DNA from: a virus | Lineage: Duplodnaviria; Caudoviricetes | Virus record (IMG/VR): IMGVR_UViG_3300031774_000018 | Location: 1-56,614 of that record | Length of the DNA stretch: 56,614 nt | Strand: one strand, 5' to 3' | Shown: positions 20,422-47,700 of the stretch, piece by piece | Layout: each line of letters opens with the position of its first letter | Position numbering within the stretch: the stretch's first letter is position 1 | The notes under the pieces: generated by a model | What the model was told of the DNA's origin: nothing | What the model saw: only the letters and a program-made list of their open reading frames with translations | Database searches by the model: none | Made by a program: the position numbers and the translations under genes

Positions 20422-20768
20422 TCTTCCTCCTTATACCTCTCTCCATTAAATATACATATAAAATATAATCCTAAGTGTCCAGTATTAAATACTTGATGGA
20501 ACTCTCCATCTTCAATTAAGATTAAATCACCTTCTTTTATTTTAAATCTTTCATAATCTACTTCCATTTCTCCATGACCTTTAATAAAGAAATAAACTTC
20601 TTCTTGTCCAATGTGTCTATGTCCATTTGTAGATTTATTAGCTCTTAAAAATGTGCTACTAACTACTAAATTTTTCAATACCTTATTATCTTTAACTAAA
20701 TAAGTAGAGGTATCTTTTATTATATCTCCCTCTATATTATTAATAGATAATACTTTCATTACTTCCAC
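20418..20768 (-). CDS. Cupin-domain protein
   Basis: HRHIGQEEVYFFIKG...GDLILIEDGEFHQVFN cupin motifs. Confidence 0.88.
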   Translation of the reverse strand: MEVMKVLSINNIEGDIIKDTSTYLVKDNKVLKNLVVSSTFLRANKSTNGHRHIGQEEVYFFIKGHGEMEVDYERFKIKEGDLILIEDGEFHQVFNTGHLGLYFICIFNGERYKEEE

Positions 20769-21986: not shown

Positions 21987-22419
21987 TATCTAACTCCTTA
22001 AAGGTTTTAAATACATCTGTTGTAAATAGTTTTTGTATACTAACTAACCACATTCTACTTGCATTATGGTCACCACCACTTACTGATTTTTTAAAGTCTA
22101 ACTTTTCTATTAGCTGTCTAAGTTTAGGAACTTCAAATACTAATGTGCAAAATATGTGGTCATCAATACAAAGATTATGAAACCAATAGTCTGCTTCGGT
22201 AGTGGTAATTCCAGAAGGTTTACCATATGATTCATATTCAATACATATGTTACCTGTCTTCATCCACATACCTCTTTCAGATTTAACTTCAATCTTTTTA
22301 TTAGTAAGCATGTTTGCTATCTTATCTTCTTTTATAGTTCCATATTCCAAATCAATATCGAACTTCTTTCTATCTTCTTTAGTGGGTTTCACTCCAATCA
22401 CCTCCAATTTTATATTCAC
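21970..22419 (-). CDS. Conserved phage protein, PD-(D/E)XK-like fold possible
   Basis: KIEVKSER...TGNICIEYES.GKPSGI..TEADYW. Confidence 0.6.
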   Translation of the reverse strand: MNIKLEVIGVKPTKEDRKKFDIDLEYGTIKEDKIANMLTNKKIEVKSERGMWMKTGNICIEYESYGKPSGITTTEADYWFHNLCIDDHIFCTLVFEVPKLRQLIEKLDFKKSVSGGDHNASRMWLVSIQKLFTTDVFKTFKELDNDQED

Positions 22420-24103
22420 CTTTTAATTCGCAACGCATATTAAAATACTCACCTGCATTTTTAATTGCATTACACCCTGATTCACCAACAAAATCTGCTT
22501 GCGATTCCTTAACTTGTATCTGCCATTCATCATGAATATTAGCTACAAACTTAGCATCTATCGCATTTAATTCTAACATATCTTGTAGTAGGCACATAGC
22601 CTTTTTCATCACTATCGCACCACCACCTTGTAATAAGGTATTAAGTGCAGCATGTTGACTTCTTACATATATCTTTCTTCCATCTAATCCTTTTAAGAAT
22701 CCTCTATTAGAAGCTTGCTGAACTCTATCTCTTAGAGTTTTAAGAGCAGGCAGGTTGGTGAAGAAAGTTTGCTTTAACATTTTACCTTTCTTAATTCCAC
22801 CACCTGCTACGCTTCCTATCTTAGCATCTCCTGCCCCATATACTAAAGCGTATATAAAAGTCTTGGCTTGGTCCCTAGTTTTAAGACCTGCTAAGTTTTG
22901 ATTAGTAGTATGTATATCCCCATGAATAACCTCTTCAATATAATCTTCGTCATTCATATAGTGTGCTAACATTCTTAATTCTAAACCACTAGCATCTATA
23001 CCTACTAATTTATATCCTTCTGGAACAGTCCAACAAGAACGACACTCCTTTCCAAAAGGGCTACCTGCATTAGGAACCTGTGCCATGTTAGGATTTCTGT
23101 GTGTCATCCTACCTGTAATAGTTCCATTAGGTATAACTCTACCATGAACTCTATCGTTTTGTAAGGCATCTATCCATGATGATATTTGTGCTATCCTTTT
23201 TTGGAATAGTAAGAAGTCTGCTATTAGTTTAGCTTCTTCAATGTGTTCAATCTTTTTAAGTGTGCCTTCATCTACAATAGGCTGACCTGTCGGTGTGAAT
23301 CTAACAGGCTTCCAACCAAAGTCCATTAAGTATTCACCAATTTGTTTACGACTACCTAGATTAAACTCAACTAACTTCTGTCTCATAAACGATTGAGTAT
23401 GGTCTGATTTTTGTATAGATTCATACTCTTCATCAGTAAGTCCTCGTTTAGATAATGTTCCATCTTTCTTTATGTAGGGTGTAACTAATTTATCATCAAC
23501 CCATTTAGGTTTAAATGTAGACTGAACCAGTAATTCTGTTTGTGCTTTCCTATCTTCTAAGTCAGCAAGTAATTCCATAGCTGTCCTAGTATCAAAATAA
23601 AATCCTGTATTCTCCTGCTCTAACATAATCTGTGCAACTCTTTGTTCTAATTGTAAAGAGTCAGGATTAAATCCTCTCCCTTCATTCTCTAAATATGTAA
23701 ATACTTTCTCATTTAATAATACATCTCCAACACAATAGTCTAACATTCTAGGTGTGTATTCTGTAAAATCTTCGGGCTGTTCTTTTTTATACATCCCTAC
23801 TCTATATCCCCAAGTCTTTAAGCTATGTCCATTTTCTCTAACTGGATTATATAACCTAGACATTACTAAAGTATCTAATAAATCTCCATCATAATCAAAG
23901 TCATATAATCTTTTTAATACAGGTAAATCAAATCCTATTATGTTATGACCTATTAAAGTATCAGCACTTTTTAATAACTCTAATCCATCTAGAATTTTAT
24001 CTGGTCCAAATTTATATATCTCACCATCTAATTCTTTCGCTACTATACACCATATCTTAGTAGCATTTAAGTCATCTGTTTCTATATCAAAAATCATCTT
24101 CAT
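22379..24103 (-). CDS. DNA polymerase family A (T7-like) with 3'-5' exonuclease
   Basis: FDIET, GHNIIGFD, TGRMTH.NPN, DASGLELR, AKTFIYALVYGAG, NIHDE. Confidence 0.97.
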   Translation of the reverse strand: MKMIFDIETDDLNATKIWCIVAKELDGEIYKFGPDKILDGLELLKSADTLIGHNIIGFDLPVLKRLYDFDYDGDLLDTLVMSRLYNPVRENGHSLKTWGYRVGMYKKEQPEDFTEYTPRMLDYCVGDVLLNEKVFTYLENEGRGFNPDSLQLEQRVAQIMLEQENTGFYFDTRTAMELLADLEDRKAQTELLVQSTFKPKWVDDKLVTPYIKKDGTLSKRGLTDEEYESIQKSDHTQSFMRQKLVEFNLGSRKQIGEYLMDFGWKPVRFTPTGQPIVDEGTLKKIEHIEEAKLIADFLLFQKRIAQISSWIDALQNDRVHGRVIPNGTITGRMTHRNPNMAQVPNAGSPFGKECRSCWTVPEGYKLVGIDASGLELRMLAHYMNDEDYIEEVIHGDIHTTNQNLAGLKTRDQAKTFIYALVYGAGDAKIGSVAGGGIKKGKMLKQTFFTNLPALKTLRDRVQQASNRGFLKGLDGRKIYVRSQHAALNTLLQGGGAIVMKKAMCLLQDMLELNAIDAKFVANIHDEWQIQVKESQADFVGESGCNAIKNAGEYFNMRCELKGEYKIGGDWSETH

Positions 24104-25742
24104 TATAAAATGTCTCCTCCTCTGTTAATTCATGCAGTCTTCCAGTTTCTACATCATACTTCAAAGAACATGCCATCCCTGTATCTCCTGTATATCTAGA
24201 TTTTAATACTCTTACTTTAGTTATGTTTGCTTCCTCTGGATTTTCTGCTTGTTGATTTCTCTCTAAAGCTATAACACAATCGGACAACTGTGCTATTCCC
24301 TGAGAACCTTTAAGATGTGAGAGTGAAACTTCAATACCTTTCTCATGTCCTTTCTCTCCTGCTGCTCTTCTTAGATGAGATACCAGTATCATTCCGACAC
24401 CTGTTTCTTCTACTAAACTTCTCAATCTATTCATGAGCATATCAATTCCTCTCCTCTCATCTCCCTCACTTAAAACATTTACTAGCATATGTAAATGGTC
24501 TACAACTACCCAATCACATTCACATCCTACTATAATATATCTTAACTTAGAAAATATTTCATCTATATCTGTAGCTCCTAAGTGAGCATGAATAAATACT
24601 CTGCCTTGTTCAATAGCCTTATCAAATAAATTATTTAATTCTTCTTCCGAATAATTATTTCTTTTCTCAGTAAGATATAATCTATCGTTAGCTTCAATAG
24701 ATACTATACCATCAGCAGTCCTCACCCAGTTTTCTTCTAGTGCTACGATACCTACATTATCCCTTGTGTTTTTAATAAGATGATGTTCAAGTTCTCTAGT
24801 CACACTAGACTTTCCAAGTCCTGTTCCACCTGTAAGAGTTACAAGTTCTCCCTTACGCAGACCATATAGTTTCTTATTCAATCCTTCCCAAGGATATGCA
24901 ATACTTTCTTTTACCTCACGATGAATCCAATCATTTTTCTGACTAGATAATTCTAAGATACCTGATGGTGTATAAGTCTTAGCTTCCCACCATGCAGTAG
25001 TAAACTCTTTAAACTTTTTCTTAACCAACATTTCGTTAGCATCTTTATATCCATTAGGAAGATTAACTATCTTAGCTTTTCCGGGCTTTATAATACGAGC
25101 AACTTGTCTTGCCCCTTCCCTACCTGCCTTGTCATTATCAAAACATAAGACAACATTATCAAAGCTTTCTACAAACTCAATGCTCTCTCTAATATCTTTA
25201 ACAGCAGAAGCTACTCCTCTTTTAATTGATACTACTGCCCACTTATCTTGGAACAATTCATTGACTGCCATAGCATCACATTCACCTTCAACAATAGTAA
25301 GATACTTACCACCTGTATTCCTATATAATTGTTCACCGAATAAACCTGTGCCTTCAAAGGTTCCATTACAGGTAAAGTTTTTATTATCAACATATCTAGT
25401 CTTAGTCCCTACTATTTCGCTACCATTAAAGTAAGGATAAATATGTTGTTTAATCTTACCATTATTATCTTTTAAAATTCTAACACCGAATTTGGTAGTA
25501 GTCTTTTTAGATATATCTCTATCAGATATGGCATCATATATACCAGTATATGAAGTTAAGAAAGTGGTTTCAGTTTTCTTAACAGGTGTTGCTGTTCCTT
25601 CTGTTTCATTTTTATAATCAGAAAAGAAAGTTCCACAACTAAAACATTTAGCTGAACCATTTTCATTTAATCCAACTGGGTCTGAACCACCACATTTTGG
25701 ACATGGCAGTTTTGTTTTTATAAATTTTGTTTGTTCTTCCAT
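24087..25742 (-). CDS. DNA primase-helicase (T7 gp4-like)
   Basis: CPKC...CFSC zinc finger, EGECDA and FDND TOPRIM, GGTGLGKS Walker A, VVDH, SHLRR, LKGS. Confidence 0.96.
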   Translation of the reverse strand: MEEQTKFIKTKLPCPKCGGSDPVGLNENGSAKCFSCGTFFSDYKNETEGTATPVKKTETTFLTSYTGIYDAISDRDISKKTTTKFGVRILKDNNGKIKQHIYPYFNGSEIVGTKTRYVDNKNFTCNGTFEGTGLFGEQLYRNTGGKYLTIVEGECDAMAVNELFQDKWAVVSIKRGVASAVKDIRESIEFVESFDNVVLCFDNDKAGREGARQVARIIKPGKAKIVNLPNGYKDANEMLVKKKFKEFTTAWWEAKTYTPSGILELSSQKNDWIHREVKESIAYPWEGLNKKLYGLRKGELVTLTGGTGLGKSSVTRELEHHLIKNTRDNVGIVALEENWVRTADGIVSIEANDRLYLTEKRNNYSEEELNNLFDKAIEQGRVFIHAHLGATDIDEIFSKLRYIIVGCECDWVVVDHLHMLVNVLSEGDERRGIDMLMNRLRSLVEETGVGMILVSHLRRAAGEKGHEKGIEVSLSHLKGSQGIAQLSDCVIALERNQQAENPEEANITKVRVLKSRYTGDTGMACSLKYDVETGRLHELTEEETFYNEDDF

Positions 25743-25876
25743 TCTATCTCCTATAGAAAAGTAGGGCGTTGTTCATATGGTTTCTAATCTACTGACAACC
25801 TAATGTCTTCAATCTCAACCAAGCAGGATTTATACTTTAAGTCCTATCCTCTTTTGTGGACACCCAATTATTTACT

Positions 25877-26101
25877 TTACTCTTCGTCAATCAAAGCATC
25901 ATCCTCTAGATAAGGTGTGATTTGACTATTGAAGTGTGCTGTTGCAGCTTCTAAGACTGCAATTCTTTTGCGTAAGGCTTTCACTTCGTTAGTGCATTCA
26001 ACAATAACACTATAAAAACCTTGTGCATCTTGATTTAGTTTCAGCACATCATATAAACCATCATCGGTTTTGTATGTGATTGAAGGTGTTTGTTCACTCA
26101 T
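25877..26101 (-). CDS. Hypothetical protein
   Basis: 74 aa, coiled-coil-like, GAGGAG RBS. Confidence 0.65.
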   Translation of the reverse strand: MSEQTPSITYKTDDGLYDVLKLNQDAQGFYSVIVECTNEVKALRKRIAVLEAATAHFNSQITPYLEDDALIDEE

Positions 26102-26103
26102 GA

Positions 26104-26517
26104 TTAAAACTCCTCGCCTTCATCAAAGAACTCATCGCCATCCCCTGATTTATATTCAACTAAATCTAGAACCTGAACAGCTTGTAAGTCAAGACTTTTA
26201 CCAGTCTTTCCTTTCCAATCCCATTCATATTCATTACATTGGACTCTAACTTTAGAGCCATTCCCAACAGCAAGATTAATGTCTTGCTTATTAGCATCAA
26301 TCAGTCTAGGAGAGTTCCTAACTATTCCATTAGGACCCTCTACTTTACGCTTGATTACTAAGCAAGGACCTTCATCCATTTGCTTTACTGTATGTCCACG
26401 ACCTGCAAAATCATCTGCAGTAGCTTGGTCTATAACCAAGTTAATCGTATACATAGGTTCAAAAGTCGTATTAGGTGTCTTGATTGAAGCCCAATACGCT
26501 ATTCCATCTACTATCAT
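26104..26517 (-). CDS. Single-stranded DNA-binding protein (T7 gp2.5-like)
   Basis: VGNGSKVRV, LQAVQVLDLVEY, acidic tail ending in Phe; AGGAGG RBS. Confidence 0.85.
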   Translation of the reverse strand: MIVDGIAYWASIKTPNTTFEPMYTINLVIDQATADDFAGRGHTVKQMDEGPCLVIKRKVEGPNGIVRNSPRLIDANKQDINLAVGNGSKVRVQCNEYEWDWKGKTGKSLDLQAVQVLDLVEYKSGDGDEFFDEGEEF

Positions 26518-26664
26518 ATTTACCTCCTATGGTATTTATAGTTTAACAAAGTGAGAGTTTTCGAGCCAACCAACTCTCAAAGTTGTGGACAGAACCAAGC
26601 CTACCAACATATAGTATGGAGATAGAGGGCTTTGTTTTCGGCTACTCATTACTTATATGCCCAC

Positions 26665-26693
26665 ATAATACTACAAGTCTATCCCTGTGTCAA
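26665..26693 (-). promoter_or_regulatory. sigma70-type promoter for the replication operon
   Basis: TTGACA-N17-TATTAT on the minus strand. Confidence 0.7.
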
Positions 26694-26865
26694 GTAAAAT
26701 TTCATCTAATTTTTCTATTTGTTTATCATCAATAAAGATTTCTACTTTAAATGTTCCATCTTTATTATATTCCACAGTATGAGGCACATCATATCCTTCA
26801 TTAGAAAGGATAGTTAATGACTCATTAAATTTTTTATAATCATCTTTATCTAATACAGCTATCAT
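26671..26865 (-). CDS. Hypothetical protein
   Basis: 64 aa, ATGA-coupled to the upstream small ORF. Confidence 0.6.
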   Translation of the reverse strand: MIAVLDKDDYKKFNESLTILSNEGYDVPHTVEYNKDGTFKVEIFIDDKQIEKLDEILLDTGIDL

Positions 26866-27017
26866 CTTCCTTGTCCTCTATATTTTTTGTATGACCTCTT
26901 TTTATTTTTATTCATGTGGCTCATAGAAACTTTCACACTTCTACCCCTGCCACCTGTTCCTTGCGAGGTGCATTTTTTAACATGGTCTATTGACTGTATT
27001 ACTTTAGCCTTCCTCAT
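26862..27017 (-). CDS. Small basic protein (51 aa, ...KKCTSQG...KKYRGQGR)
   Basis: Not in ORF track; AAGGA upstream, fills the gap, highly basic with YRGQG terminus. Confidence 0.65.
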   Translation of the reverse strand: MRKAKVIQSIDHVKKCTSQGTGGRGRSVKVSMSHMNKNKKRSYKKYRGQGR

Positions 27018-27225
27018 CTGATTTCCTTTCTTTAAATCCAAGTTTTAAAAGTAAAGGTCTGCAATAATCTACATCTTCTTTTGTCATCTTACCTACCTTA
27101 CCAATACATTCAACAGCATTATCTACTGACCAGTATTGTAATTGATTAATTCTATATTGTTGAATACTCATACCTGTAATTAGTATTAATATTATAAATA
27201 TATAATTCATATTTTTATTTTTCAT
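27004..27225 (-). CDS. Small membrane-anchored protein
   Basis: N-terminal TM segment, AGGAG RBS. Confidence 0.6.
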   Translation of the reverse strand: MKNKNMNYIFIILILITGMSIQQYRINQLQYWSVDNAVECIGKVGKMTKEDVDYCRPLLLKLGFKERKSDEEG

Positions 27226-27235
27226 ACATTCTCCT

Positions 27236-27496
27236 TTAATGTAAAGTTATATTATTATCTAACCCTTGTCGGATTAAATCCTCATCTCCTACCTGTTCTC
27301 TCAATCTTCTAAGCTCTAGAAAATCTCCATGAAAATCCCAGATGTATTGAGTATCTACTTCCTCAATATCAATTATATCTACAACTGATTTCAAAGCTAG
27401 CATATTATCAATAGCATACTGGACACTCCAACCAAAAGTTTTTAGTAGTGCTCGTTCTTGATTATCAAAGACTACTGTTATCAGATATTCCTTCAT
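27236..27496 (-). CDS. Hypothetical protein
   Basis: 86-aa ORF in tightly packed minus-strand array; GGAGG upstream. Confidence 0.6.
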   Translation of the reverse strand: MKEYLITVVFDNQERALLKTFGWSVQYAIDNMLALKSVVDIIDIEEVDTQYIWDFHGDFLELRRLREQVGDEDLIRQGLDNNITLH

Positions 27497-27752
27497 CTGC
27501 TATGACCTCCATTAACTGTTTGTAATTCTTAATATGTGGATATTTTTTTAATCGTTTCATAATATACTTATCAGTCATATAAGAATAGATAACACCCTCA
27601 GTCGTATAGACATGGGTTTGCTCAGGTAAGATGTCATTAACATTCTTAACTGTAATGTTGTTTGCTTGTTCATCAGGCAATAAAGATTTCATCCACTCAA
27701 CCTGAATAGGTTTAATCCTTTTCCTTAATTTTTTTATTGTCTTTGCATTCAT
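27465..27752 (-). CDS. Hypothetical protein
   Basis: 95-aa ORF, basic N-terminus. Confidence 0.6.
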   Translation of the reverse strand: MNAKTIKKLRKRIKPIQVEWMKSLLPDEQANNITVKNVNDILPEQTHVYTTEGVIYSYMTDKYIMKRLKKYPHIKNYKQLMEVIADEGISDNSSL

Positions 27753-27753
27753 A

Positions 27754-28101
27754 TTATTCCCATGCTGTAAATTCCATATAAGGTGTTTCTCTATGTCCTT
27801 CTGGCAACCATTCTACCATATCTTTAGCTTCCTGTAAAGTAAAAGTTGTAGCTACACTCTCCCCTTCATCATTATGTGCTAGCAATAAAGCTTTACCTGC
27901 ATAGTTCCTATCTTTAATACTAAAGTATCTTTGATTATCTATCATTAAACCTTCATCATCTATATACATATCATTTTCAATCGTAAGTCTAACACAATCA
28001 AAAGTTCTACAGTCTGTTAAGTTATAGATTTCTCTATAGTCCCCTGTATATTCTACCTCTTTGATTGTTTCATCAAACGGATTTATTAATATTCCTTTCA
28101 T
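27754..28101 (-). CDS. DUF3846-like phage protein
   Basis: MKGILINP...MYIDDEGL...YAGKALL pattern; AGGAG RBS. Confidence 0.65.
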   Translation of the reverse strand: MKGILINPFDETIKEVEYTGDYREIYNLTDCRTFDCVRLTIENDMYIDDEGLMIDNQRYFSIKDRNYAGKALLLAHNDEGESVATTFTLQEAKDMVEWLPEGHRETPYMEFTAWE

Positions 28102-28303
28102 GCTCTACTCCTTTTGCTATTAATCTTGTAAGGGTTTCCCCTATTATTTGGTGGATAAACTGGTCTGTGCATTGATATGTTTTATATTTATTCAATTCTT
28201 CCATTACACGCAGAGTTATTTCACCCATAGTTTCATCAGTTAAAGTTCTTACAACTTCGTAATCTCTAACCAAACTTTCTTCTACTGTTTTATATATACT
28301 CAT
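28073..28303 (-). CDS. Hypothetical protein
   Basis: 76-aa ORF in early array. Confidence 0.55.
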   Translation of the reverse strand: MSIYKTVEESLVRDYEVVRTLTDETMGEITLRVMEELNKYKTYQCTDQFIHQIIGETLTRLIAKGVEHERNINKSV

Positions 28304-28490
28304 TATATTTATATCCTTCCTTCCATATCTCAGGTTTATATTTAGATAGTTTATCTACCTCACATTCTTCACAGGCATGAGCTACAAAATCTCCTTCTGC
28401 ATCATCACACCTAAACATTTCTTTGCCACTACCACAATCGCAGTCTGTAGGTGTTATCCCATAACAATAATCATCCCATATCTGTTTCAT
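28290..28490 (-). CDS. Small Cys-rich hypothetical protein
   Basis: CDCGSG...CEEC, possible zinc ribbon; GGAGG RBS. Confidence 0.6.
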   Translation of the reverse strand: MKQIWDDYCYGITPTDCDCGSGKEMFRCDDAEGDFVAHACEECEVDKLSKYKPEIWKEGYKYNEYI

Positions 28491-28681
28491 ACTGCTCTGT
28501 CCTCCATCATTTCTTCTGCAATTATGTCAAGTATTTCTTCTCTATCATCATCTGGATGTAAGTCTTTTTCTAATGAAACATCCATTACTTTTCTACCAAA
28601 CTCTCTATCTGAACAGTCTTCCAGATATTCTATCTCTTCCCAAATCTCTTGCCATATCATATCATTTATATGATTACTCAT
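28487..28681 (-). CDS. Acidic hypothetical protein
   Basis: 64 aa, D/E-rich, LHPDDD.E.I segment; AGGAG RBS. Confidence 0.6.
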   Translation of the reverse strand: MSNHINDMIWQEIWEEIEYLEDCSDREFGRKVMDVSLEKDLHPDDDREEILDIIAEEMMEDRAV

Positions 28682-28838
28682 CTTTATCTCCTTTATTATT
28701 TATAGGCATCATCCAATCCAATACCTTCACCATTTGGTTAAACATTGCATCATCATACTCCATTTGTTTTTCAAAGTCAAGCCATTCTTTACTTTCTTTA
28801 TCTACATTTTCTTCCCATTCTCTAAATACTTTACTCAT
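28674..28838 (-). CDS. Hypothetical protein (54 aa, MSKVFREWEE...)
   Basis: Not in ORF track; GAGG upstream, fills gap with ATGA coupling. Confidence 0.55.
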   Translation of the reverse strand: MSKVFREWEENVDKESKEWLDFEKQMEYDDAMFNQMVKVLDWMMPINNKGDKDE

Positions 28839-29020
28839 ATTTCATCCTCATTAAATTTGAAATTCATCCCTTCCTCAATTATAAAATCATTAAGGCTTTC
28901 AGATACCTCTCTATCTTTATTGTTATATTCTAACCATTTATCTAAATTGTTAGTAGTAGCTACATAAGTTTTCATAACTCCATCATGCCAATATATGTTG
29001 TATAGTTTTTCTTCATTCAT
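28835..29020 (-). CDS. Hypothetical protein
   Basis: 61-aa ORF in early array. Confidence 0.55.
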   Translation of the reverse strand: MNEEKLYNIYWHDGVMKTYVATTNNLDKWLEYNNKDREVSESLNDFIIEEGMNFKFNEDEI

Positions 29021-29264
29021 ATTCTTCCCTCACATCTTTAATATATTCTTCAATAGAATTTAATGCTTGCATAACATTATAATCCTTTCCATTTAAATTA
29101 GTTCTTAGTTTATCAAATGCTCTAACTAAATGAACTATCTCCATATCTAAAACAGATACATAATCTTGTTCAGTTTCTGAATAATATAGTATATCATCTG
29201 TCATATCATTAGGTATAGTATAACCTAAAGTCTTTGAAATTTCAAGTGCTTGTTTTACTTTCAT
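29013..29264 (-). CDS. Hypothetical protein
   Basis: 83 aa, AGGAG RBS. Confidence 0.6.
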   Translation of the reverse strand: MKVKQALEISKTLGYTIPNDMTDDILYYSETEQDYVSVLDMEIVHLVRAFDKLRTNLNGKDYNVMQALNSIEEYIKDVREEYE

Positions 29265-29273
29265 AATTATCTC

Positions 29274-29981
29274 CTATATATGTATTACAAAGCCTGACAT
29301 ATCATGTCTAGCTTTACCCTTTGCTTTAAGACCGACAATCACATTGTCTTTATCTAAAAATCTTAAATCTGTTTCATCCCCATCAACCACTTCCCTGCCT
29401 TTAAAGTAGATAGGGAAAGCACCATTGAATACTACTGCTATATTATATGCAATCTTATCATACCATTTAGCATACTTATCATTAGCTTCTGAATAACTCC
29501 AAGTCAAATGATAGTTCTTGATATGTGATACTTTTCTTGTAGGTATCTTGGTGTAGTCATAGAACTGTATATCTGGGAAGTGTTCAAACATAGTCTTGCC
29601 TTTGTATAGTTTGTGTTCCCATTGTATATCACTTGTGCCATTCAATCTAAATGAAGGTGTTATACCTTTGTTATTACAATAGTTTATAAACCTTGTAATT
29701 TCTGTATGTAATAACTCTATGAAATAATCATAATGGTTTAAATACATATCAGTCCTACGCTGTCTAGCATCCTGTATTCTATTGGTATTTTCTCCTTTCT
29801 TAAAAATACCCCCTCTACCTGCTGTATTTAAACAAGCAGTCTTACAAGATGCTACCTCTTGATAAGGACATATCTTAGTATTGATTGGTCTAAGGTGCAT
29901 TATAGCTGTAAGTATATTCTTATGCTTCTTAAACCCTTTTATAGTCTTTGGATTATTGACTGTTAATAATTGATATGCCAC
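29274..29981 (-). CDS. Gp88-like Cys-motif protein (possible Fe-S/radical-SAM-related)
   Basis: CP-x6-C-x3-CL..AGRG, RLNGTSDI, FYDYTK, YHLTWSYSE, GDETDLRFLD, LKAKG. Confidence 0.65.
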   Translation of the reverse strand: MAYQLLTVNNPKTIKGFKKHKNILTAIMHLRPINTKICPYQEVASCKTACLNTAGRGGIFKKGENTNRIQDARQRRTDMYLNHYDYFIELLHTEITRFINYCNNKGITPSFRLNGTSDIQWEHKLYKGKTMFEHFPDIQFYDYTKIPTRKVSHIKNYHLTWSYSEANDKYAKWYDKIAYNIAVVFNGAFPIYFKGREVVDGDETDLRFLDKDNVIVGLKAKGKARHDMSGFVIHI

Positions 29982-29992
29982 AACATTCTCCT

Positions 29993-30469
29993 TTATTTTA
30001 CAAATGTTTTAATTAATGACTCGACTATTGCTTTTGCATTAAAGTCGCCACTCATAGTTTGTAATCCTAGCTCATCTGATATTGACAGTCTAACACTATG
30101 AGGTATTCCAGTTTTTACTTCATAACTAGCATGTGATGAACTATACCCACCCCTATTGAAATCAAGATAAGTTCCTTCATAACCATGATAATAAGAATTT
30201 GACTTACCTTCACTATGACACACATTAAAATCCTCGATTAAACCACTTACTTCACTTGTTAAAGCATCTCTACTGTCTTCAATACTTTTAATATTATCAG
30301 TCATATTATTTATCTCAGATATTTTCTGTAAAATAACTTGACATACTCCACTATCTTCAAACTCTTTTACAAAGTCCTCTTTAGATTTAGTTTCCCAAGC
30401 AGTTTTTACTTGTCTTTCAATAATTTCTCTATCACATACTCTCATTCCTTTACTCATATTTATCTCCAT
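29993..30469 (-). CDS. Hypothetical protein
   Basis: 158-aa ORF; likely start at the second Met after GGAG. Confidence 0.6.
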   Translation of the reverse strand: MEINMSKGMRVCDREIIERQVKTAWETKSKEDFVKEFEDSGVCQVILQKISEINNMTDNIKSIEDSRDALTSEVSGLIEDFNVCHSEGKSNSYYHGYEGTYLDFNRGGYSSSHASYEVKTGIPHSVRLSISDELGLQTMSGDFNAKAIVESLIKTFVK

Positions 30470-30522
30470 AAATTAAATTCTGGTTTATTAAAATAGGAAA
30501 ACCAGCAAAACCTTTTTAACTA

Positions 30523-30933
30523 TTAACCTAGTAATCTTCTAAAAAATCCTACTACGCCTCTAGCATTATGTCTTTCAGACATTCTAACTATTTCTTCAAA
30601 ACTTTCAAAAGCATCTTGCATGTCTAAATTATGAGGGACACTCATGACTTGCATACCTTTATTAGTTTTACCTACATTCACTTTCTTTCCAAAGTAAATC
30701 TTCTTAGCAGGGTTCTTAAGTTGTTGATATGCCGATATTTTATTGAAGTGTAAACCTAAGAAGGTCTTACCTTTCGTATTTCCATATCTATTTTTTATAC
30801 CTCGAACTCTAAGAATATTAAACCCATTCCTAGAAGCATAAGCCCATAATCTCCTTTCAAGAAAAGAAGCTTCTGAAATTGCCTTTGTGGTGGCAGAACC
30901 ATTATTTGTATAAGTTATCATTATACTCTCCAT
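30523..30933 (-). CDS. Hypothetical basic protein
   Basis: 136-aa ORF. Confidence 0.6.
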   Translation of the reverse strand: MESIMITYTNNGSATTKAISEASFLERRLWAYASRNGFNILRVRGIKNRYGNTKGKTFLGLHFNKISAYQQLKNPAKKIYFGKKVNVGKTNKGMQVMSVPHNLDMQDAFESFEEIVRMSERHNARGVVGFFRRLLG

Positions 30934-30980
30934 TTAAATTAGGGCAGTATTTAATCGCAACTGCCCAAAGCGAATTATGA

Positions 30981-31328
30981 TTACCAGTCTTTCTTAACTA
31001 ACTGGACATCTAATGAATAGCCTTCTCGCATTTCATTAAATTCTGTTATAATCTCTTCAACTCTATCTTCACAAAACGATTGGACATCATCTCTGAGTTC
31101 ATCTTTCAAATACTCTTGGTCGTCAATCATTTGATTACAACGACTTTCCATGTCTTCCCACTCATATTTCATATCGTGATTAACACTCTCGACATCATCA
31201 AATCTAGCATTCAATTCCTGAATTTCATATTCACTAGATTGCACTTTATCATTCAATTTTGAGGCAACTATATAGTTAATCTCCTCGCTTAGTAGGTTCA
31301 ACAACCAATTTTTAATAATATTTTTCAT
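30981..31328 (-). CDS. Hypothetical acidic coiled-coil protein
   Basis: 115 aa, GGAGG RBS, downstream of an early promoter. Confidence 0.6.
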   Translation of the reverse strand: MKNIIKNWLLNLLSEEINYIVASKLNDKVQSSEYEIQELNARFDDVESVNHDMKYEWEDMESRCNQMIDDQEYLKDELRDDVQSFCEDRVEEIITEFNEMREGYSLDVQLVKKDW

Positions 31329-31387
31329 ATTTAAAGCCCTCCCAGACTATTTAAAATACACTTCAACATCTTGTGTGCCGAAGTGAT

Positions 31388-31456
31388 GACAAGCTTACAC
31401 CCTGCCCCGACAGATGTCAAGGCAAGTTAAAGCTTTAAGACTACTCTTTCTTTGAT
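31388..31456 (-). promoter_or_regulatory. Early promoter cassette copy 1
   Basis: TTGACA-N17-TAAGCT (31420-31392) plus about 36 nt of upstream sequence shared with 32311-32379. Confidence 0.8.
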
Positions 31457-31467
31457 AGTTATAATTA

Positions 31468-31866
31468 CTATCTACAAAGAGCATCATACATCTCTTGCGT
31501 TTCATATCTATCATGAACAGATATATATTTACTGATTGGATAACCAACCATCTTTTCTAACTGGCTAGTGATAGTTGAATTAACTTCTGCTATCATTCCA
31601 TTAGACATTGGTCCAATTAAATTCTTTCTGTTCGGATGATAAGGTCGTAAATGAAATCCAAATTGAGGTCTAAATCCAAACATATACAAATCTTTATCAT
31701 CTGTATTCACTTCTTTTTTCCAATAGCAATCAGAAAGTTTTAGTTCACCTCTATCAATTCCATCTTCCCAATCTATTTCCATAGATAGTTTAATTTCATC
31801 AAATCCTTCTGTATAGTCAGGACTGCCATGCGTAGATTTTAGTAAGGGTGCTGTGTTAAAAGCCAT
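31468..31866 (-). CDS. Hypothetical protein
   Basis: 132 aa, AGGAG RBS; LIGPMSNG and ISVHDRYE segments. Confidence 0.65.
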   Translation of the reverse strand: MAFNTAPLLKSTHGSPDYTEGFDEIKLSMEIDWEDGIDRGELKLSDCYWKKEVNTDDKDLYMFGFRPQFGFHLRPYHPNRKNLIGPMSNGMIAEVNSTITSQLEKMVGYPISKYISVHDRYETQEMYDALCR

Positions 31867-31875
31867 AATATTCTC

Positions 31876-32019
31876 CTATATTATAATTAATGCGATTATA
31901 ACCATTACAATCGCTAGTGGTTTTAATATATACCAGTTAATTCTAAAAAGCAAGCTCTCATTTGCTTGTCTTTTAAAATCTTTCTGAAATAAAGCCCATT
32001 CTTGATATATTTTATTCAT
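31876..32019 (-). CDS. Small membrane protein (47 aa)
   Basis: Not in ORF track; AGGAG RBS, hydrophobic C-terminus PLAIVMVIIALIII. Confidence 0.55.
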   Translation of the reverse strand: MNKIYQEWALFQKDFKRQANESLLFRINWYILKPLAIVMVIIALIII

Positions 32020-32031
32020 ATTTTACTCCTT

Positions 32032-32256
32032 TTAAAATTGTTGGACAGTCCAAACTGTTCCCATTTCCATACTATCATTACTAAAAAAATCATAATTTGA
32101 TTTTAGAAAAGCATGTTGCCTTTTGGATTTGTGTTGCCACATCTCACTTCTATCCTCTTTATAATTATTCCTAGATTTATAGGAAAATCCCAGTTCATAT
32201 AGATACTGAGTAGCCCTATCATGAGTAGTAAATTTAATAACATTGTGTTTTTTCAT
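32032..32256 (-). CDS. Hypothetical early protein (74 aa, start corrected to MKKHNV)
   Basis: GGAGG RBS precedes ATG at 32256; the longer ORF would overlap the promoter. Confidence 0.65.
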   Translation of the reverse strand: MKKHNVIKFTTHDRATQYLYELGFSYKSRNNYKEDRSEMWQHKSKRQHAFLKSNYDFFSNDSMEMGTVWTVQQF

Positions 32257-32310
32257 AAAAACCTCCATAAGTTTTAAAAAAACATCATGACAACCCTGCC
32301 ACGACTTGCC

Positions 32311-32379
32311 GACAAGCTTACACCCCATCACCGAAGATGTCAACCCAAGTTAAAACTTTAAAACTACTCTTTCTTTGAT
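32311..32379 (-). promoter_or_regulatory. Early promoter cassette copy 2
   Basis: TTGACA-N17-TAAGCT (32343-32315) with conserved upstream block atcaaagaaagagtagt.ttaaag.tttaacttg. Confidence 0.8.
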
Positions 32380-32462
32380 GTTTAAAATTTGTAATATATT
32401 ATGCAAAAACTATTAAATTTTATTAAAATAAATCTAAAAATACCAAAAATCATGTAAAAATA

Positions 32463-32550
32463 GTTATCCACAGGTAATTAACAGCATATTAACAGGTAAT
32501 TAACAGCATATTAACAGCATTTTAACAGTATTTTCACAGTTTTTTAACAC
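32463..32550. repeat. DnaA box plus 11-bp-period TTAACAG array
   Basis: TTATCCACA at 32464-32472; TTAAC at 32478, 32489, 32500, 32511, 32522, 32544 and TTCAC at 32533. Confidence 0.85.
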
Positions 32551-32780
32551 ATTTGTAAAAATTTCCCTCAACCTACTGCCTGCCTATTATTTAACTAATT
32601 AACTAAAATTAATTAATTAAATCTATCTAGTTATTTCTAACTTCTGCATGCCCCCTTAAAGTTCTGAGAATATTCCATACCCCTCAAATTGTTAAATAAG
32701 TAAAAAGATATGAAAGATTACCGAGAATATCGCTAAAATGCGAACTTCAAAGCACAATTATAGCATGGAAATTGGTATTT

Positions 32781-32817
32781 AAAAAAAGCTCCCAGACTCC
32801 AAAGCCTGAGAGCTTTT
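32781..32817 (-). terminator. Probable intrinsic terminator after 32823..33095
   Basis: AAAAGCTC...GAGCTTTT stem followed by a T7 run on the minus strand. Confidence 0.55.
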
Positions 32818-32822
32818 AAAGG

Positions 32823-33095
32823 CTAGCTTTGCTTTTGAGCTATATATTTCTCTATCTGAGTATTATATTTAGCTGGAAGCTTGTTCTTACTGAACATTGC
32901 ATTAGCTTCTGCAAAAGTAAGCGTTTTCTTCTTGGCGTTTCCAAAAAGACAGCCTAATATTCTCTTCTGGAGTTGCCAGTTCATCTTGCCCTTGTTATTG
33001 GCAAACTTTAAAGAGAGCCCACGACATTGCGAGAATGTTGCAGGATTTGCTTGCTCCTCTTTCGAGAAGTCGTTTATATTAAATGTATTTTCCAT
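32823..33095 (-). CDS. Early hypothetical protein in the left arm of the fold-back
   Basis: 90 aa, strong AAGGAGG RBS, terminator downstream. Confidence 0.75.
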   Translation of the reverse strand: MENTFNINDFSKEEQANPATFSQCRGLSLKFANNKGKMNWQLQKRILGCLFGNAKKKTLTFAEANAMFSKNKLPAKYNTQIEKYIAQKQS

Positions 33096-33096
33096 G

Positions 33097-33300
33097 TTAT
33101 ACCTCCTTAGGTGTTATGGATTGGTTAATCCCTTGAATGTAAGCTTCTAGGGCGTTTATTTCGGGAAGGTTAGTTCCCATTATTCCGATGACTTTATTGC
33201 CGACACTAGCGTTAGCTCTGGCGACCTTAGAGGCATCTGAAATCGATTGAAACTCAAGAGTTTCTTTGTTTCCGAAAGTTAAGTGTATATAGTTTGTCAT
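33097..33300 (-). CDS. Early hypothetical protein in the left arm of the fold-back (start MTNYIH, near-leaderless)
   Basis: ATG at 33300 lies 9 nt downstream of the -10 box; stop abuts the next gene. Confidence 0.65.
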   Translation of the reverse strand: MTNYIHLTFGNKETLEFQSISDASKVARANASVGNKVIGIMGTNLPEINALEAYIQGINQSITPKEV

Positions 33301-33309
33301 AATAAAATA

Positions 33310-33338
33310 ATTATAATCCATTTCTTCTAGAAGTGCAA
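33310..33338 (-). promoter_or_regulatory. sigma70-type promoter next to the fold-back loop
   Basis: TTGCAC-N17-TATAAT on the minus strand. Confidence 0.7.
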
Positions 33339-34279
33339 GGTTTTGTGAGGCACGAGCAAACTTTAGACTACCTTGTTCTTATAGAAAAATAGGATTATTT
33401 TAGTTTTGTTATGGGGAACTATAGACACTATAACTTACGAGAGACAAGGGAGCTCTGCTAGTTCAATCAGGTTTCAGGTGTCTTTGAGGTTGGGAGAGCT
33501 AAACGCTAGTAGTTGGAGAGGAAGTCATCTGGAATAATGAGGGAGTAAGCTTGCTGGAATGAATGTTCTAGAAGCTTTAACATTCAAGAGGATTAAGCGA
33601 TTCATGATGCCTAAGGAGAATATAACATGAGGAAATGCGTTTGATGTATTCGAGTTCTTGATTTGTCTTAGCAAGTGAATCCTGCATCATCGGAAGCTTT
33701 GTTGTGGGCATTAGAGTTCTTGCCAATGTTATGGGCATTTGAATTGGCATTGGGTTTAGAGAATATAGGGTGTCGCCCATTAGGTAGCCAAGAAGAAAAC
33801 ATTTTTTAGACATAGAAGCTAATGTAATGTTCTTTTATCTTACAAGCTTACAATTTCTTTCTATACTCAGATTGAGAAATGTTTTCTCTGCCTGCAAAGC
33901 TTTTAAAGTAGCTTTCAGGTTTTGGAGTCTGGGATTTATTAGTGCTAAATACACACTTGAAAACTTTAATGGCTTTGTAAACTAGAATAATGTGATAGTC
34001 TTGATGAAGGAAACACTTGGTAGCACTAATAAATCTTTCATATCTTTGGAATCTTCAAAGTCTATAGAAGGGGCAGGCAGGCTACCATGCCCTCCACCCT
34101 ATATATACATCTAATACTCATACAAAATTCTACAAATCTACCATTAACTAGATTTAACAACTAGTTTACATCCCGACTATCAGGAGTTATATTTTTTAAG
34201 GTTTACTTGATGGTTTTCCAGAGTATGGAAATAAGGTTATAGCTAGAGGCTATATATGTACCCGGGAGGGCACTATGTT

Positions 34280-34308
34280 ATTATACATATCATATACTCT
34301 TTTGTCAA
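34280..34308 (-). promoter_or_regulatory. Consensus leftward promoter facing the non-coding arm
   Basis: TTGACA-N17-TATAAT on the minus strand. Confidence 0.8.
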
Positions 34309-34335
34309 TACTTATTTAAGTTTATTATAAAATAC

Positions 34336-34364
34336 TTGACAAATCTAGTATACAACTATATACT
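34336..34364 (+). promoter_or_regulatory. Rightward promoter for the late operon (leaderless terS)
   Basis: TTGACA-N17-TATACT; ATG 6 nt after the -10 box, no SD. Confidence 0.8.
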
Positions 34365-34370
34365 TATAAC

Positions 34371-34802
34371 ATGGCAATACTTCCAAGTATAAGTAACGAT
34401 AATAAAAGAAGAGAACTAACTGACAAGCAACAGTCGTTCTTAGATAACCTTGTGGAAACACAGGGGGATGCTAAGAAGGCTGCTGAATTAGCAGGATATA
34501 CTTCTCATTATCATCATGTTGTAAAGACTTTAAAGTCTGAGATACTTGAATTAACTCAGGAAGTATTAGCAAACTCTGCACCTAAAGCAGCTTTTAAGCT
34601 AGTTGAGATAATGGAATCTAACAAACCCATCCCTCAAGCTAGTAATAAATTAACTGCTGCTCAAACTCTACTAGATAGAGTAGGCGTAGGGAAGATTGAT
34701 AAAGTAGATGTAAATCATAATGTCAATACCGGTGGTATCTTTTTAATGCCCGATAAAAATCCTATAGATATAGAAGGCGATTATGAAGAACTATTGGATT
34801 GA
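34371..34802 (+). CDS. Terminase small subunit (putative)
   Basis: LTDKQQSFL...GDAKKAAELAGY HTH-type N-terminus, AAQTLLDRVG; upstream of terL. Confidence 0.75.
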   Translation: MAILPSISNDNKRRELTDKQQSFLDNLVETQGDAKKAAELAGYTSHYHHVVKTLKSEILELTQEVLANSAPKAAFKLVEIMESNKPIPQASNKLTAAQTLLDRVGVGKIDKVDVNHNVNTGGIFLMPDKNPIDIEGDYEELLD

Positions 34803-44727: not shown

Positions 44728-47700
44728 ATGGCAACATATACAAGGCAAAGTTCATTTAGTGATGGAGACAGCATAACTGCTGCTTTATTTAATGATGAAT
44801 TTAATCAATTAGTAAATACATTTCATGTAAGTACTGGACACTCACATGATGGGACAACAGCAGGAGATGGTGGTCCTATTACAGTTTTATATGGTAATAG
44901 TTTAACTTTCGGTACGAATGCTGAAAGTGATGTAGTTATTACTTTTAATGCAGCATCTAACGATGGAGTATTATCATGGATGGAAGATGAAGACTATTTT
45001 AAGTTTTCAGATGATGTTTATATAGATTCAGATTTAACTGTTACTGGAAACGCTGTTATAAATGGTAATTTAACATTTGGTAATGCAGCTACAGATACAG
45101 TTTCTTTTGGAGCTGATATAGATTCACACATTATACCTGATGATGATGATACTTATGACTTAGGTAGTTCTACACAACAATGGAGAAATGCTTATATTGA
45201 TGGAACATTAGAAGCCGATGCAATTACTATCGGTGGTGCTACATTAGCAGAAACAATTAGTGATACTGTAGGAGCTATGGTATCAAGTAATACTGAGTCA
45301 GGAATAACTGTTGCCTATGATGATTCAGATAATACATTAGACTTTACAGTTGGAACACTAAACCAAAGTACTACAGGAAACGCTGCAACTGCCACAGCTT
45401 TAGAAACTGCTAGAACTATTCATGGTGTAAGTTTTGATGGTACTGCTAATATTGATTTAGCAGAAGTTATTCAAGATACTGTAGGAGCTATGGTATCAAG
45501 TAATACTGAATCAGGTGTTACAGTAACATATCAAGATGCTGATGGAACTATAGACTTTACTGTAGCTTCACAAACAGATGAAAACTTTACAACTGCTGAC
45601 CATGCAAAACTAGATGGTATAGAAGCTAGTGCAACAGCCGACCAAACAGATGAAGAAATACAAGATATAGTAGGTGGAATGCTTACTGGTAATACTGAAA
45701 CAGGTATTACTGTTACATATCAAGATGCAGATGGTACAGTAGATTTTGTTGTAGCATCTCAAACAGATGAAAATTTTACAACAGCAGACCATTCTAAATT
45801 AGATGGTATAGAAGCTAATGCTACTGCAGACCAGTCAGATGAAGAAATAGAAGATATTGTTGGAGCTATGTTTAGTTCTAATACTGAAACAGGTATTACA
45901 GCAACATATCAAGATGCAGATGGTACTATAGATTTAGTAGTTGGTACATTAAACCAAGATACTACAGGTAATGCAGCCACAGCTACAGCATTAGAAACTG
46001 CCAGAACAATACATGGTGTTTCTTTTGATGGCACAAGTAATATAGATTTAAGTGAAGTAGTACAAGATACAGTAGGTGCTCAACTTGCAACTAATGGTTC
46101 TCATACAAATTTAACTGCTACTTATGATGATGCAGGAGATGGAGCTGTAGATTTAGCTATTACTGATTCAACTATTAGAGGTAAGGTATCAGTCACAGAT
46201 TCAGGTGGAGATGGTTCTCTAGCATATAATAATTCAACAGGTGTAATAACTTATACAGGACCAAGTGCTGCTGAGGTAAGAGCTCATTTAAGTGCTGGAA
46301 CTGGAATAACTTATTCAGGTGGAGCAATAAGTATAGGACAAGCAGTAGGAACATCAAGTAATGTATCTTTTGGTAATTTAACCTTATCAGGTAATTTAAC
46401 AGTTAATGGAACAACATCAACAGTTTCCTCTACTAATACAACTATATCAGATAACTTATTAGAACTAAACAATGGAGCAAGTTCTAATTCTAATGATTCA
46501 GGTATTGTTATAGAAAGAGGCTCAACAGGCGATAACGCCTTTATGGGTTGGGATGAAAGTGCTGATGGATTTATTTTAGGTACGACAACAGCAACAGGAA
46601 GTTCTACAGGTGATTTAACAATAACTGCTGGTAATTTACAAACTGCTGCTATCTCTGCAACTAATATTACAGTATCAGGAACAGTAGATGGAAGAGATGT
46701 GGCTACTGATGGTACTAAACTAGATGGTATAGAAGCAAGTGCTACAGCAGACCAGACAAATGCAGAAATAAGAACAGCAGTTGAAGCAGCTACTGATTCT
46801 AATGTATTTACTGATGCTGACCATTCTAAGTTAAATGCAATAGAAGCAAGTGCTGATGTTACAGACGCTACAAATGTAGGGACTGCTTTAACAGCATTCA
46901 GTACTGCAACAGATGCTGCTAGTTCTGACTTAGTTCCATATTATGATGTAACTGCAGGAGCATGGGAAAAAGGTACAATAGCAAATGTAGCATTACAAGG
47001 TAATAAAGGACAGAAAGGTGAATTAGGTGTAACAGGACCATCAGGACCTACAGGACCAACTGGTTCTACAGGACCTACAGGACCAACAGGCTCAAAAGGT
47101 CAGAAGGGTGAAGTAGGAGCTGGAGGTTCCACAGGTTCCACAGGGTCAGCCGGTTCTAAAGGACAAAAAGGTGAAGTGGGTGTTGGAGGTTCAACAGGAC
47201 CTACAGGACCAACAGGACCTAGTGGAGCTGCTTCGGATGGTAGTAAAGGACAGAAAGGTGAAGTAGGAGCTGGAGGTTCAACTGGACCATCAGGACCTAC
47301 AGGTTCTACTGGACCATCAGGAAGTAATGGTAGTGCTGGAGCAAAAGGACAGAAAGGTGAAGTAGGTACAACAGGACCTACAGGACCATCAGGACCTACA
47401 GGTTCTGGAGGCTCTGCCGGAGATGATGGAGACAAAGGACAAAAAGGTGAAGTGGGTGCAGGTGGACCTACAGGAGCTGGAGGTTCAACAGGACCTACAG
47501 GACCTACAGGACCATCAGGACCATCAGGTTCTGGGGGCTCTACAGGAGCTAAAGGTCAGAAAGGTGAAGTAGGTGCAGGTGGACCTACAGGAAGTACCGG
47601 ACCAACAGGACCATCAGGACCATCAGGTTCTGCAGGCTCCAATGGTGATAAAGGACAAAAAGGTGAAGTAGGAGCAGGTGGTTCGACAGGTAGTACAGGA

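Follow-up and report, generated by a model that had tools for sequence, protein, structure and literature searches.

A strand-biased fold-back mirroring two small genes at the early/late junction of a pelagiphage

The fold-back and its two genes

The DNA considered here, referred to below as the window, is the entire virus record IMGVR_UViG_3300031774_000018 (56,614 nt, completeness rating 100%), and is a complete HMO-2011-type pelagiphage. Genes lie on the - strand from 16086 to 32343 and on the + strand from 34371 onwards and from 1 to 15740, and the divergent early/late junction contains a large fold-back, or rod. In this element, two small first-early genes, designated A and B, are mirrored by a non-coding arm that forms a degenerate reverse complement of both (Table 1). 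The original prediction, which was made from the DNA sequence of the window, had proposed that selection acts on a rod of more than 1 kb formed by one single strand.

Colinear inverted pairs run from 32790-32814/33910-33934 (25 nt, 92%) inward to 33282-33341/33370-33429, and a self-search of the genome aligns 32790-33934 with itself on the minus strand at 69% identity (E 4.0e-95). Counted strictly over aligned columns, the arms are about 78% identical, with 65 gap columns, and the longest perfect run between them is 14 nt, as compared with 25-26 nt in the most regular rod found among relatives (L050). The repeat search and the self-search reproduce all of the arm and patch positions that had been predicted, and two helices singled out at that stage reappear in a global arm alignment as 22 bp with 6 wobbles and 15-16 bp with 4 wobbles. 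Beyond the core, the mirror symmetry is weakly extended by two flank insertions (32690-32789 and 33935-34060). These insertions are lineage-specific, being absent from the other four lineages aligned, and are partly complementary, including a perfect 16-nt patch, as if sequence had been added mirror-fashion on both sides.

Genes A and B are both under purifying selection, and neither protein belongs to a Pfam or PHROG family. The start of gene A is probably the ATG at 33300, which is conserved across lineages and would shorten the predicted protein to 67 amino acids. In a profile search, the protein B family comprises 58 cluster representatives. An alignment of 37 sequences gives a mainly helical predicted fold with a predicted local distance difference test score (pLDDT) of 93.2 and a predicted template modelling score (pTM) of 0.81, where an earlier fold from 9 sequences had a pLDDT of 54. 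This fold has no PDB or BFVD match at E<=0.001, and for protein function the ESM Atlas provides weak leads only, below 0.9. Homologous segments within longer proteins were of no help in assigning a function, being uninformative or spurious.

The mirror arm contains only open reading frame (ORF) fragments in the window, and an intact frame is present in no lineage; the ORF scan thus agrees with the view that the left arm encodes two - strand proteins and that the right arm has lost the frames. The mirror arm also copies the ribosome-binding site and ATG of gene B, both of which sit in a Watson-Crick helix with their mirrored copy. Among 44 distinct sequences, the nucleotides of the first eight codons of gene B (33072-33095, - strand) are near-invariant, synonymous sites included, and beyond these codons the same sequences diverge to about 70% identity. 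The near-invariance of the gene B start suggests a constraint beyond the protein.

Several familiar explanations for large inverted repeats were considered and set aside. The stretch matches the genome at its own locus only and its position is syntenic in all relatives examined, which argues against a miniature inverted-repeat transposable element (MITE) or fold-back transposon. Similarly, the perfect palindrome of a hairpin telomere or concatemer junction, of the protelomerase or poxvirus type, is at odds with the modest arm identity, the loop of 28-30 nt and the short longest run. A hairpin terminus, one of the options in the original prediction, looks unlikely for the same reason of arm identity, and also because the record reads through the site. 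No protelomerase was detected among 20 of the larger ORFs scanned against PHROGs; an endonuclease is present at 20759-21193. ORFs are open at both ends of the record (1-847 and 55697-56614), and the record is therefore probably an arbitrarily opened circular or permuted map. Finally, a cmscan search of 32000-34800 on both strands against Rfam at E<=1 gave no ribozyme family and only MIR2646, at 40 bits as compared with a gathering score of 245; this weak match to a plant microRNA-precursor model simply reflects a long hairpin.

Table 1. Coordinates of the fold-back, its genes and the elements flanking it in the window
Feature	Position	Strand	Remarks
Iteron array	32464-32554	+	Perfect DnaA box and about seven further, degenerate 11-bp repeats, core TTAACAG
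Outer perfect 16-nt patch	32704-32719 paired with 34032-34047		Inverted-repeat search
Candidate intrinsic terminator of - strand transcript	32781-32814	-	Read from sequence
Left (gene) arm	32790-33340	+	Antisense to genes B and A on the + strand
Gene B	32823-33095	-	90 amino acids; orphan protein family
Gene A	33097-33321	-	74 amino acids as ORF; orphan protein
Apex promoter candidate	33310-33338	-	TTGCAC-17-TATAAT just upstream of gene A; read from sequence
Apical loop of rod	33341-33370		Loop of 28-30 nt
Right (mirror) arm	33371-33934	+	Non-coding degenerate reverse complement of the gene arm
Leader	33935-34272	-	Between leftward promoter and rod; blocks conserved in all five lineages
P_L	34280-34308	-	TTGACA-17-TATAAT, 12/12; leftward through mirror arm into genes A and B
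P_R	34336-34364	+	TTGACA-17-TATACT, 11/12; drives small terminase gene, ATG 34371

Conservation, strand bias and covariation

The complete fold-back stretch is present in 14 DNA runs of marine or viral origin, at 0.98-1.00 of the sampled words, and the run search returned 20 matching rows spanning 13 studies. Protein B was used to recover relatives, at first 12 and then 74 viral contigs. In 67 of the 74, BLAST detects a large inverted repeat around the same two genes, giving 59 distinct rods. An assembly artefact, which the original prediction had named as a concern, is ruled out by this recurrence across runs and, with lineage-specific sequence, across independent viral contigs. Of the seven remaining contigs, two are cut by the contig end and five have no BLAST match; three of these five were tested, and all three retain a significant residual repeat (local scores of 46-66, compared with at most 27 in shuffles) and still give a rod-like fold.

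Synteny is kept in all relatives examined, even as the sequence of the fold-back changes from lineage to lineage. Distant loci were searched with single protein-B members, the alignment of distant homologues being too diverse, and the loci of three distant homologues (31-40% identity to the window protein) carry the repeat in the same synteny. Isolated phages yielded no similar DNA by megablast and no match to protein B by tblastn. The nearest cultured phage, HTVC115P, has neither the two genes nor the repeat, and the cassette with its mirror is therefore an accessory module of part of the phage group. The closest isolates infect Pelagibacter HTCC7211 and HTCC1062.

A comparison of the core arms, in which the alignment was scored without distinguishing transition types, shows a pronounced strand asymmetry. 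The oppositions in the window comprise 420 Watson-Crick pairs, 52 G:T, 5 A:C and 63 of transversion type (binomial p 6e-11), which bears out the earlier observation that deviations within helices are nearly all G.T on the + strand. The transversion-type oppositions on the + strand are skewed as well, with 26 T:T vs 4 A:A and 13 G:G vs 2 C:C. G.T, T.T and G.G are tolerated on the + strand, and A.C and C.C are purged.

This asymmetry is reflected in predicted stability. Folding of each strand together with shuffles had been suggested with the original prediction, and the + strand is the more stable: the RNA minimum free energy of 32790-33934 is -597.3 kcal/mol for the + strand vs -407.0 for the - strand, and the z-scores for 32900-33820 (20 dinucleotide shuffles) are -45.8 and -16.0, respectively. 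The + strand RNA folds into a single rod of 453 pairs, 52 of them G:U, and the fold of the - strand contains 9 G:U. With DNA parameters, the values for the window are -287 (+) vs -221 (-) kcal/mol, and the direction is the same in all five lineages tested, with a gap of merely 19 kcal in L009.

Across the family, G:T oppositions exceed A:C in 45 of the 59 distinct rods, fall below them in 10 and tie with them in 4. In 25 rods the excess reaches significance at p<0.01, and no rod has a significant reversal, although the rods are related and these counts are not independent (the rods over 1 kb form 15 clusters). The bias extends to the distant relative L092, with 33 G:T vs 2 A:C and folding energies of -602 vs -474 kcal/mol. 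Of 18 representatives, 17 fold better on the antisense strand, with a margin of 13 to 232 kcal/mol; the exception is L020, in which the sense strand leads by 20. As had been predicted, the + strand, antisense to the two genes, is the favoured one in the window, and the same is true of the majority of lineages, though not of every one. L050, L058 and L009/L010 have almost no transition mismatches, and both of their strands pair equally well (-655/-641 kcal/mol in L050 and -564/-550 in L009), and L046, L073 and L079 are degenerate on both strands. A second strand asymmetry, an excess of A.G over C.T on the antisense strand, occurs in L053, L061, L066-L068, L070 and L071; examples from lineages lacking the G:T bias are 45:11 (L067), 35:18 and 34:11.

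The relationship between the arms was also compared among lineages. Gene arms are about 70% identical between lineages and mirror arms about 67-71%, values near what this gapped alignment gives for unrelated lineage pairs. The match of a mirror arm to the gene arm of the same rod is 0.78-0.91, as against 0.64-0.73 to the arms of other lineages, with the exception of the sister lineages L011 and L014, whose arms reach up to 0.81. The mirror arms are closest to their own gene arm, and the arms therefore co-evolve. A search for compensatory changes, likewise proposed at the outset, was carried out with RNAalifold on six relatives of 75-97% identity. The consensus has 495 pairs, with 94.7% of cells paired, and both sides have changed in 69 pairs as compared with 33.1 +/- 3.7 in column shuffles (0/500 reach the observed value) and 5-14 in slid controls, in which partners were shifted by 1-3 columns. 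Double changes from one Watson-Crick pair to another, transversion types included, number 6 between the window and L003 and 13 between L011 and L014.

It is conceivable that the element has no structural function, with repeated gene conversion or re-copying holding the two duplicates alike and strand-asymmetric mutation producing the bias. Inter-arm conversion would also yield both-side changes, and there are lineages with few substitution mismatches and no bias (3:3 in L050, 9:7 in L009). However, each double change affects a single pair and is closely bounded by mismatches that have been retained. For 24 of the 25 listed, the nearest shared mismatch, wherever there is one, is no more than 11 nt away on either side, and for the remaining one it is 22 nt away on one side, so that long conversion tracts cannot explain them; the dispersal of the double changes and the shortness of the perfect runs both disfavour long-tract conversion. 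Mirror-arm frames are not intact even where the arms are most alike, perfect runs in L050 do not exceed the length given above, and the repeat persists down to about 30% protein identity.

The mutational half of this alternative was addressed with polarised substitutions in a trio of close relatives, comparing C>T plus A>G with G>A plus T>C. The flanks have an overall spectrum of 110:110 (78:90 in - strand genes, 10:8 and 7:4 in non-coding flanks, 15:8 in + strand genes), and the mirror arm has 15:8. A lean towards C>T and A>G is present to the right of the apex (37 vs 20) and not to its left (89 vs 105), as strand-asymmetric mutation might produce, but a local lean of under 2:1 falls well short of the observed 10:1. 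In the mirror arm, C>T (8) and A>G (7) contribute near-equally, which is unlike cytosine deamination of exposed single-stranded DNA (ssDNA), and the excess of T:T and G:G needs transversions. Neither the unpaired positions of the mirror arm nor the adjacent leader are consistently G+T-rich; a general G+T enrichment of the template of the leader RNA is absent in the flanks and in the unpaired positions of three of four lineages. Strand-biased mutation was rejected as the main cause on the basis of the symmetric flank spectrum and the composition of unpaired positions. In single-sided changes between close relatives, those between Watson-Crick and G:U outnumber those between Watson-Crick and A:C by 12:1, 8:0, 10:0 and 33:11, and this excess implies that "wrong-way" transitions fall mostly at existing wobbles.

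The absence of a structural function is thus very improbable, and the evidence together favours selection for + strand pairing over mutational bias. The covariation supports the proposed selection on a long single-strand rod for the window and most relatives. The argument originally used, that a neutrally decaying inverted duplication would show no one-strand bias, fails as logic, as asymmetric mutation could produce one, but its conclusion stands on the spectra of the flanks and the mirror arm.

Flanking elements and the nature of the folded molecule

The iteron array lies 240 nt left of the rod base and is headed by a perfect DnaA box, TTATCCACA (32464-32472), the only perfect one in the genome. 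Among 38 distinct left flanks of relatives, 21 have at least one perfect DnaA box, always on the + strand and never on the other, at 180-390 nt from the rod base. Relatives carry up to four such boxes in one orientation, spaced by about 10-11 or 21 bp, and the boxes are followed by a conserved GC cluster, CCCTCAACC, and then by an AT-rich stretch (left flanks, loci L017-L089). As judged from sequence, several boxes in one orientation, helical spacing and an adjoining AT-rich stretch are what would be expected of a DnaA-box cluster, and the array is a probable origin or DnaA-binding site. An origin had been suspected at the early/late junction from the beginning, and the array makes this plausible. 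At the end of the array there is also a recurrent TTCACA-18-TATACT-like site, which scores no better than candidates on the other strand.

At the base of the rod, the candidate terminator consists of a local hairpin (32788-32814) followed by U7 on the - strand (A7, 32781-32787, on the + strand), and both the A7 and the local hairpin are kept in all five lineages aligned. An automated terminator scan missed this hairpin, the loop of which exceeds 8 nt. A contig from an oligo-dT RNA library ends at 32780, at the predicted terminator, and another RNA-library contig starts at 34372; the coincidence of these ends with the terminator and with the P_R start site suggests that they derive from real transcripts. 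A further RNA-library contig covers 32976 to 33184, after which come 15 nt reverse-complementary to about 33227-33241, a snap-back that is probably a complementary DNA (cDNA) artefact.

On the other side of the rod, P_L and P_R are back-to-back consensus sigma-70-type promoters; scans found the pair in each of 7 contexts, and L092 carries it too. The -10 box of P_R ends 6 nt before the small-terminase ATG, and this spacing, together with the contig start at 34372, implies that the terminase mRNA may be leaderless. The mRNA of gene A may likewise be leaderless, as the -10 box of the apex promoter candidate ends 9 nt before the ATG at 33300. The leader between P_L and the rod, about 250-340 nt long in relatives, contains conserved blocks such as GGGCAGG..ACCA..CCCTCCACCC and ACTAGTTAAC..CCCGACTAT, and leader-like motifs, judged by eye, are also present in the rod-less isolate HTVC115P. 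It may represent a separate conserved RNA or DNA site.

The molecule under selection is tentatively proposed to be a + strand transcript that forms a long hairpin RNA, a reading that we consider possible but short of probable. Such a transcript would start in the iteron/AT-rich region left of the rod, run antisense through B and A and then through the mirror arm, and fold into a duplex of about 550 bp containing G.U pairs. The element measures about 1.15 kb, one arm corresponds to the A-B cassette down to its candidate terminator, and the mirror arm tracks the fast-evolving coding arm through compensatory changes. Such a hairpin would most simply have been born by inverted duplication of the neighbouring A-B cassette, after which only pairing and not sequence would need to be kept. 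The rod might mask the antisense segment, or act as a double-stranded RNA decoy or regulator. The data show the structure and its conservation, the covariation and, for most lineages, the strand bias; the RNA nature of the molecule, the start of its transcript and the role of the rod are what we infer. A replacement of A:C by G:T is worth about 4 kcal per site in RNA vs about 1.4 kcal in DNA (190 and 66 kcal over 47 net positions), and the 10:1 discrimination consequently fits RNA better. In addition, a proportion of about 11% G:U pairs and a tolerance of U.U are typical of RNA helices.

A number of findings weigh against a + strand hairpin RNA. A strong or conserved + strand promoter was not found left of the rod: candidates scoring at least 9.5/12 occur in 11 of 36 distinct flanks, all of them below 10.5, and the other strand does no worse, with such candidates in 13 of the 36. 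Nor was a conserved U-tract found after the rod on the + strand of the five lineages aligned. The only strong conserved promoter, P_L, transcribes the opposite strand through the whole rod, so that a + transcript would meet converging polymerases and fully complementary RNA. In four RNA or RNA-labelled runs, contigs are confined to 32780-33352 and the terminase gene, although these contigs do not reveal their strand and the absent cover of the mirror arm and leader is not evidence of absence. No Rfam family was matched in 32000-34800, the strand bias is absent in a sizeable minority of lineages (9:7 in L009, 3:3 in L050, 12:12 in L061 and 11:16 in L020), and the stability of the rods ranges from -0.35 to -0.53 kcal per nt.

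A + strand that folds as ssDNA requires no + strand promoter, and none that is convincing is present. In this case, the rod would snap together on the lagging-strand template of a rightward fork from the iteron array or, in a variant, on the 3' tail that 5'->3' resection of a genome end lying to the right would leave. It might then serve as a single-strand initiation or priming signal, protect the template strand of A and B, or form a fork or end structure. The same-orientation DnaA boxes near the rod base, with their GC cluster and AT-rich stretch, would suit such a scheme, as would a T7-like replication module that includes a Gp2.5-like ssDNA-binding/annealing protein, and the asymmetry persists with DNA parameters. 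Nearest-neighbour rankings place A.C and C.C among the least stable DNA mismatches and G.T, G.G and G.A among the most stable, and A.C and C.C are the rarest oppositions in the rod. Strand-specific DNA hairpins can be functional, as in the Frpo single-strand promoters, according to the relevant passages of PMC9849209. However, a lagging-strand template is usually harmed by forming a long hairpin, G.T and A.C differ so little in energy in DNA that a 10:1 bias is harder to explain, and 17 of the 38 flanks have no DnaA box within one mismatch. The apex does not consistently rebuild -35 and -10 boxes, and a benefit to the phage is not known. An ssDNA rod is regarded as the main rival of the hairpin RNA, and as somewhat less probable.

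The apex was examined for promoters in 42 rods. The candidate upstream of gene A is lineage-specific, with a gene-side mean of 8.6/12 vs 7.8 in control windows, and the mirror side, which reads TTGTTC-17-TATTTT in the window, has a mean of 8.3/12 vs the same controls. An apex promoter pair or a self-contained ssDNA transcription unit was rejected on the grounds that the apex promoters are not conserved across these rods. It follows that most lineages must express A and B from P_L, and this bears on a different possibility, namely that the functional molecule is the - strand P_L transcript, in which the mirror arm would serve as a 5' leader and base-pair with the coding sequence of A and B. Such a leader might act as a cis-antisense translation attenuator or an RNase III target, the A.C excess on this strand being a selected weakening of the hairpin. 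All lineages examined have a perfect-consensus P_L, from which transcription crosses the mirror arm and enters A and B, the gene B ribosome-binding site and ATG are held in a helix with their mirrored copy, the - strand folds far better than its shuffles, and lineages such as L050 and L009 pair equally well on both strands. Selection on this transcript would be expected to tolerate G:U and purge A.C on the - strand, but the opposite is found in 25 rods and a significant reverse never. Moreover, wobble sites turn over fast between close relatives, with many 3:3 and 4:2 splits, and are therefore tolerated sites rather than selected mismatches. Overall, the - strand transcript is an unlikely candidate.

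In one further reading, the rod could be a whole-gene single-strand promoter, in which the mirror arm folds onto the exposed + template and restores a transcribable, protected duplex of A and B that extends from the promoter region as far as the terminator. This is judged quite unlikely, as is the accompanying suggestion that the template becomes single-stranded through resection of the end at entry, or because it forms the initial lagging-strand stretch beside the DnaA-box site.

The large terminase of the window is 68-70% identical to those of the Pelagibacter phages HTVC115P, HTVC103P and HTVC104P and about 46% identical to that of Puniceispirillum phage HMO-2011. The T7-like replication set comprises a primase-helicase, a family A polymerase, an exonuclease and an endonuclease in addition to the Gp2.5-like protein, and a ribonucleotide reductase is also encoded. 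A region of elevated G+C (0.44-0.49 at 46000-49000 vs about 0.33 elsewhere) lies inside a 1476-amino-acid tail-fibre gene that matches collagen-like and tail-fibre families. A term search of the main text of the HMO-2011 group paper found no mention of termini, promoters or an origin.

Comparison with known systems and implications

Hairpin-RNA (hpRNA) genes born by inverted duplication of a target gene are found at plant and animal hpRNA loci and young microRNA loci. These loci share with the rod a mirror copy beside or overlapping a gene, a long imperfect hairpin with a G:U bias on the strand that is transcribed, and conservation of pairing rather than sequence. However, they act via Dicer and RNA interference (RNAi), which are absent from bacteria, whereas one arm of the rod is a still working gene. 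Hepatitis delta virus and the Obelisks also form rods (about 1.1-1.7 kb) in which most bases are paired, one arm carries small ORFs and the strand antisense to these gives the better rod, but these are circular RNA replicons and the rod described here is a fixed, syntenic segment of a double-stranded DNA (dsDNA) phage, placed between its promoters and a DnaA-box array. Both the hpRNA genes and the RNA replicons resemble it in shape only.

Frpo-type promoters are about 0.3 kb in size, are non-coding and rebuild -35/-10 boxes, whereas the rod is 1.1-1.3 kb long, has a two-gene cassette as one arm, and has no conserved rebuilt promoter. We know of no ssDNA stage for this dsDNA phage, unlike the Frpo systems. 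As far as they are described in the relevant passages of PMC9849209, Frpo1 and Frpo2 of F and ssi of ColIb-P9 are likewise imperfect inverted repeats of which one strand is functional when folded, and Frpo, like the rod, sits in the first-acting DNA after entry, upstream of or around early establishment genes. A further likeness, to the untranslated repeat region of phage T5, concerns the iteron array and not the rod; the T5 repeats are non-coding and much shorter, and their role as an injection stop signal is itself a hypothesis. To our knowledge, no two-step injection is known for pelagiphages. As described in bioRxiv 10.1101/866236, about eight DnaA boxes occur there in a fixed arrangement beside inverted repeats and palindromes, just beyond the first-expressed genes, which is similar to the iteron array. 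The iteron array also resembles bacterial oriC.

The element fits no described class of phage element found. A gene-wide mirror arm in a phage is not described in the full texts searched, and there is no Rfam match either; the original prediction likewise knew of no described equivalent in podoviruses. The element is real, and it is conserved, without a described counterpart, in an ecologically dominant phage group; HMO-2011-type pelagiphages are counted among the most abundant marine viruses in the pertinent passages of PMC9038755.

The significance of the rod depends on the molecule that folds. If it is RNA, it would represent a new kind of large structured or double-stranded phage RNA. An ssDNA rod would instead be a sign that a phage with T7-like replication has a single-stranded stage or structure at its origin or entry end, and if the single-strand promoter reading were true, a dsDNA phage would be insuring its first genes against loss of the complementary strand. 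The rod is also a clean natural system for the co-evolution of a coding sequence and its structural partner, and it illustrates that a wobble bias confined to one strand can bring a single-stranded function of a dsDNA genome to light.

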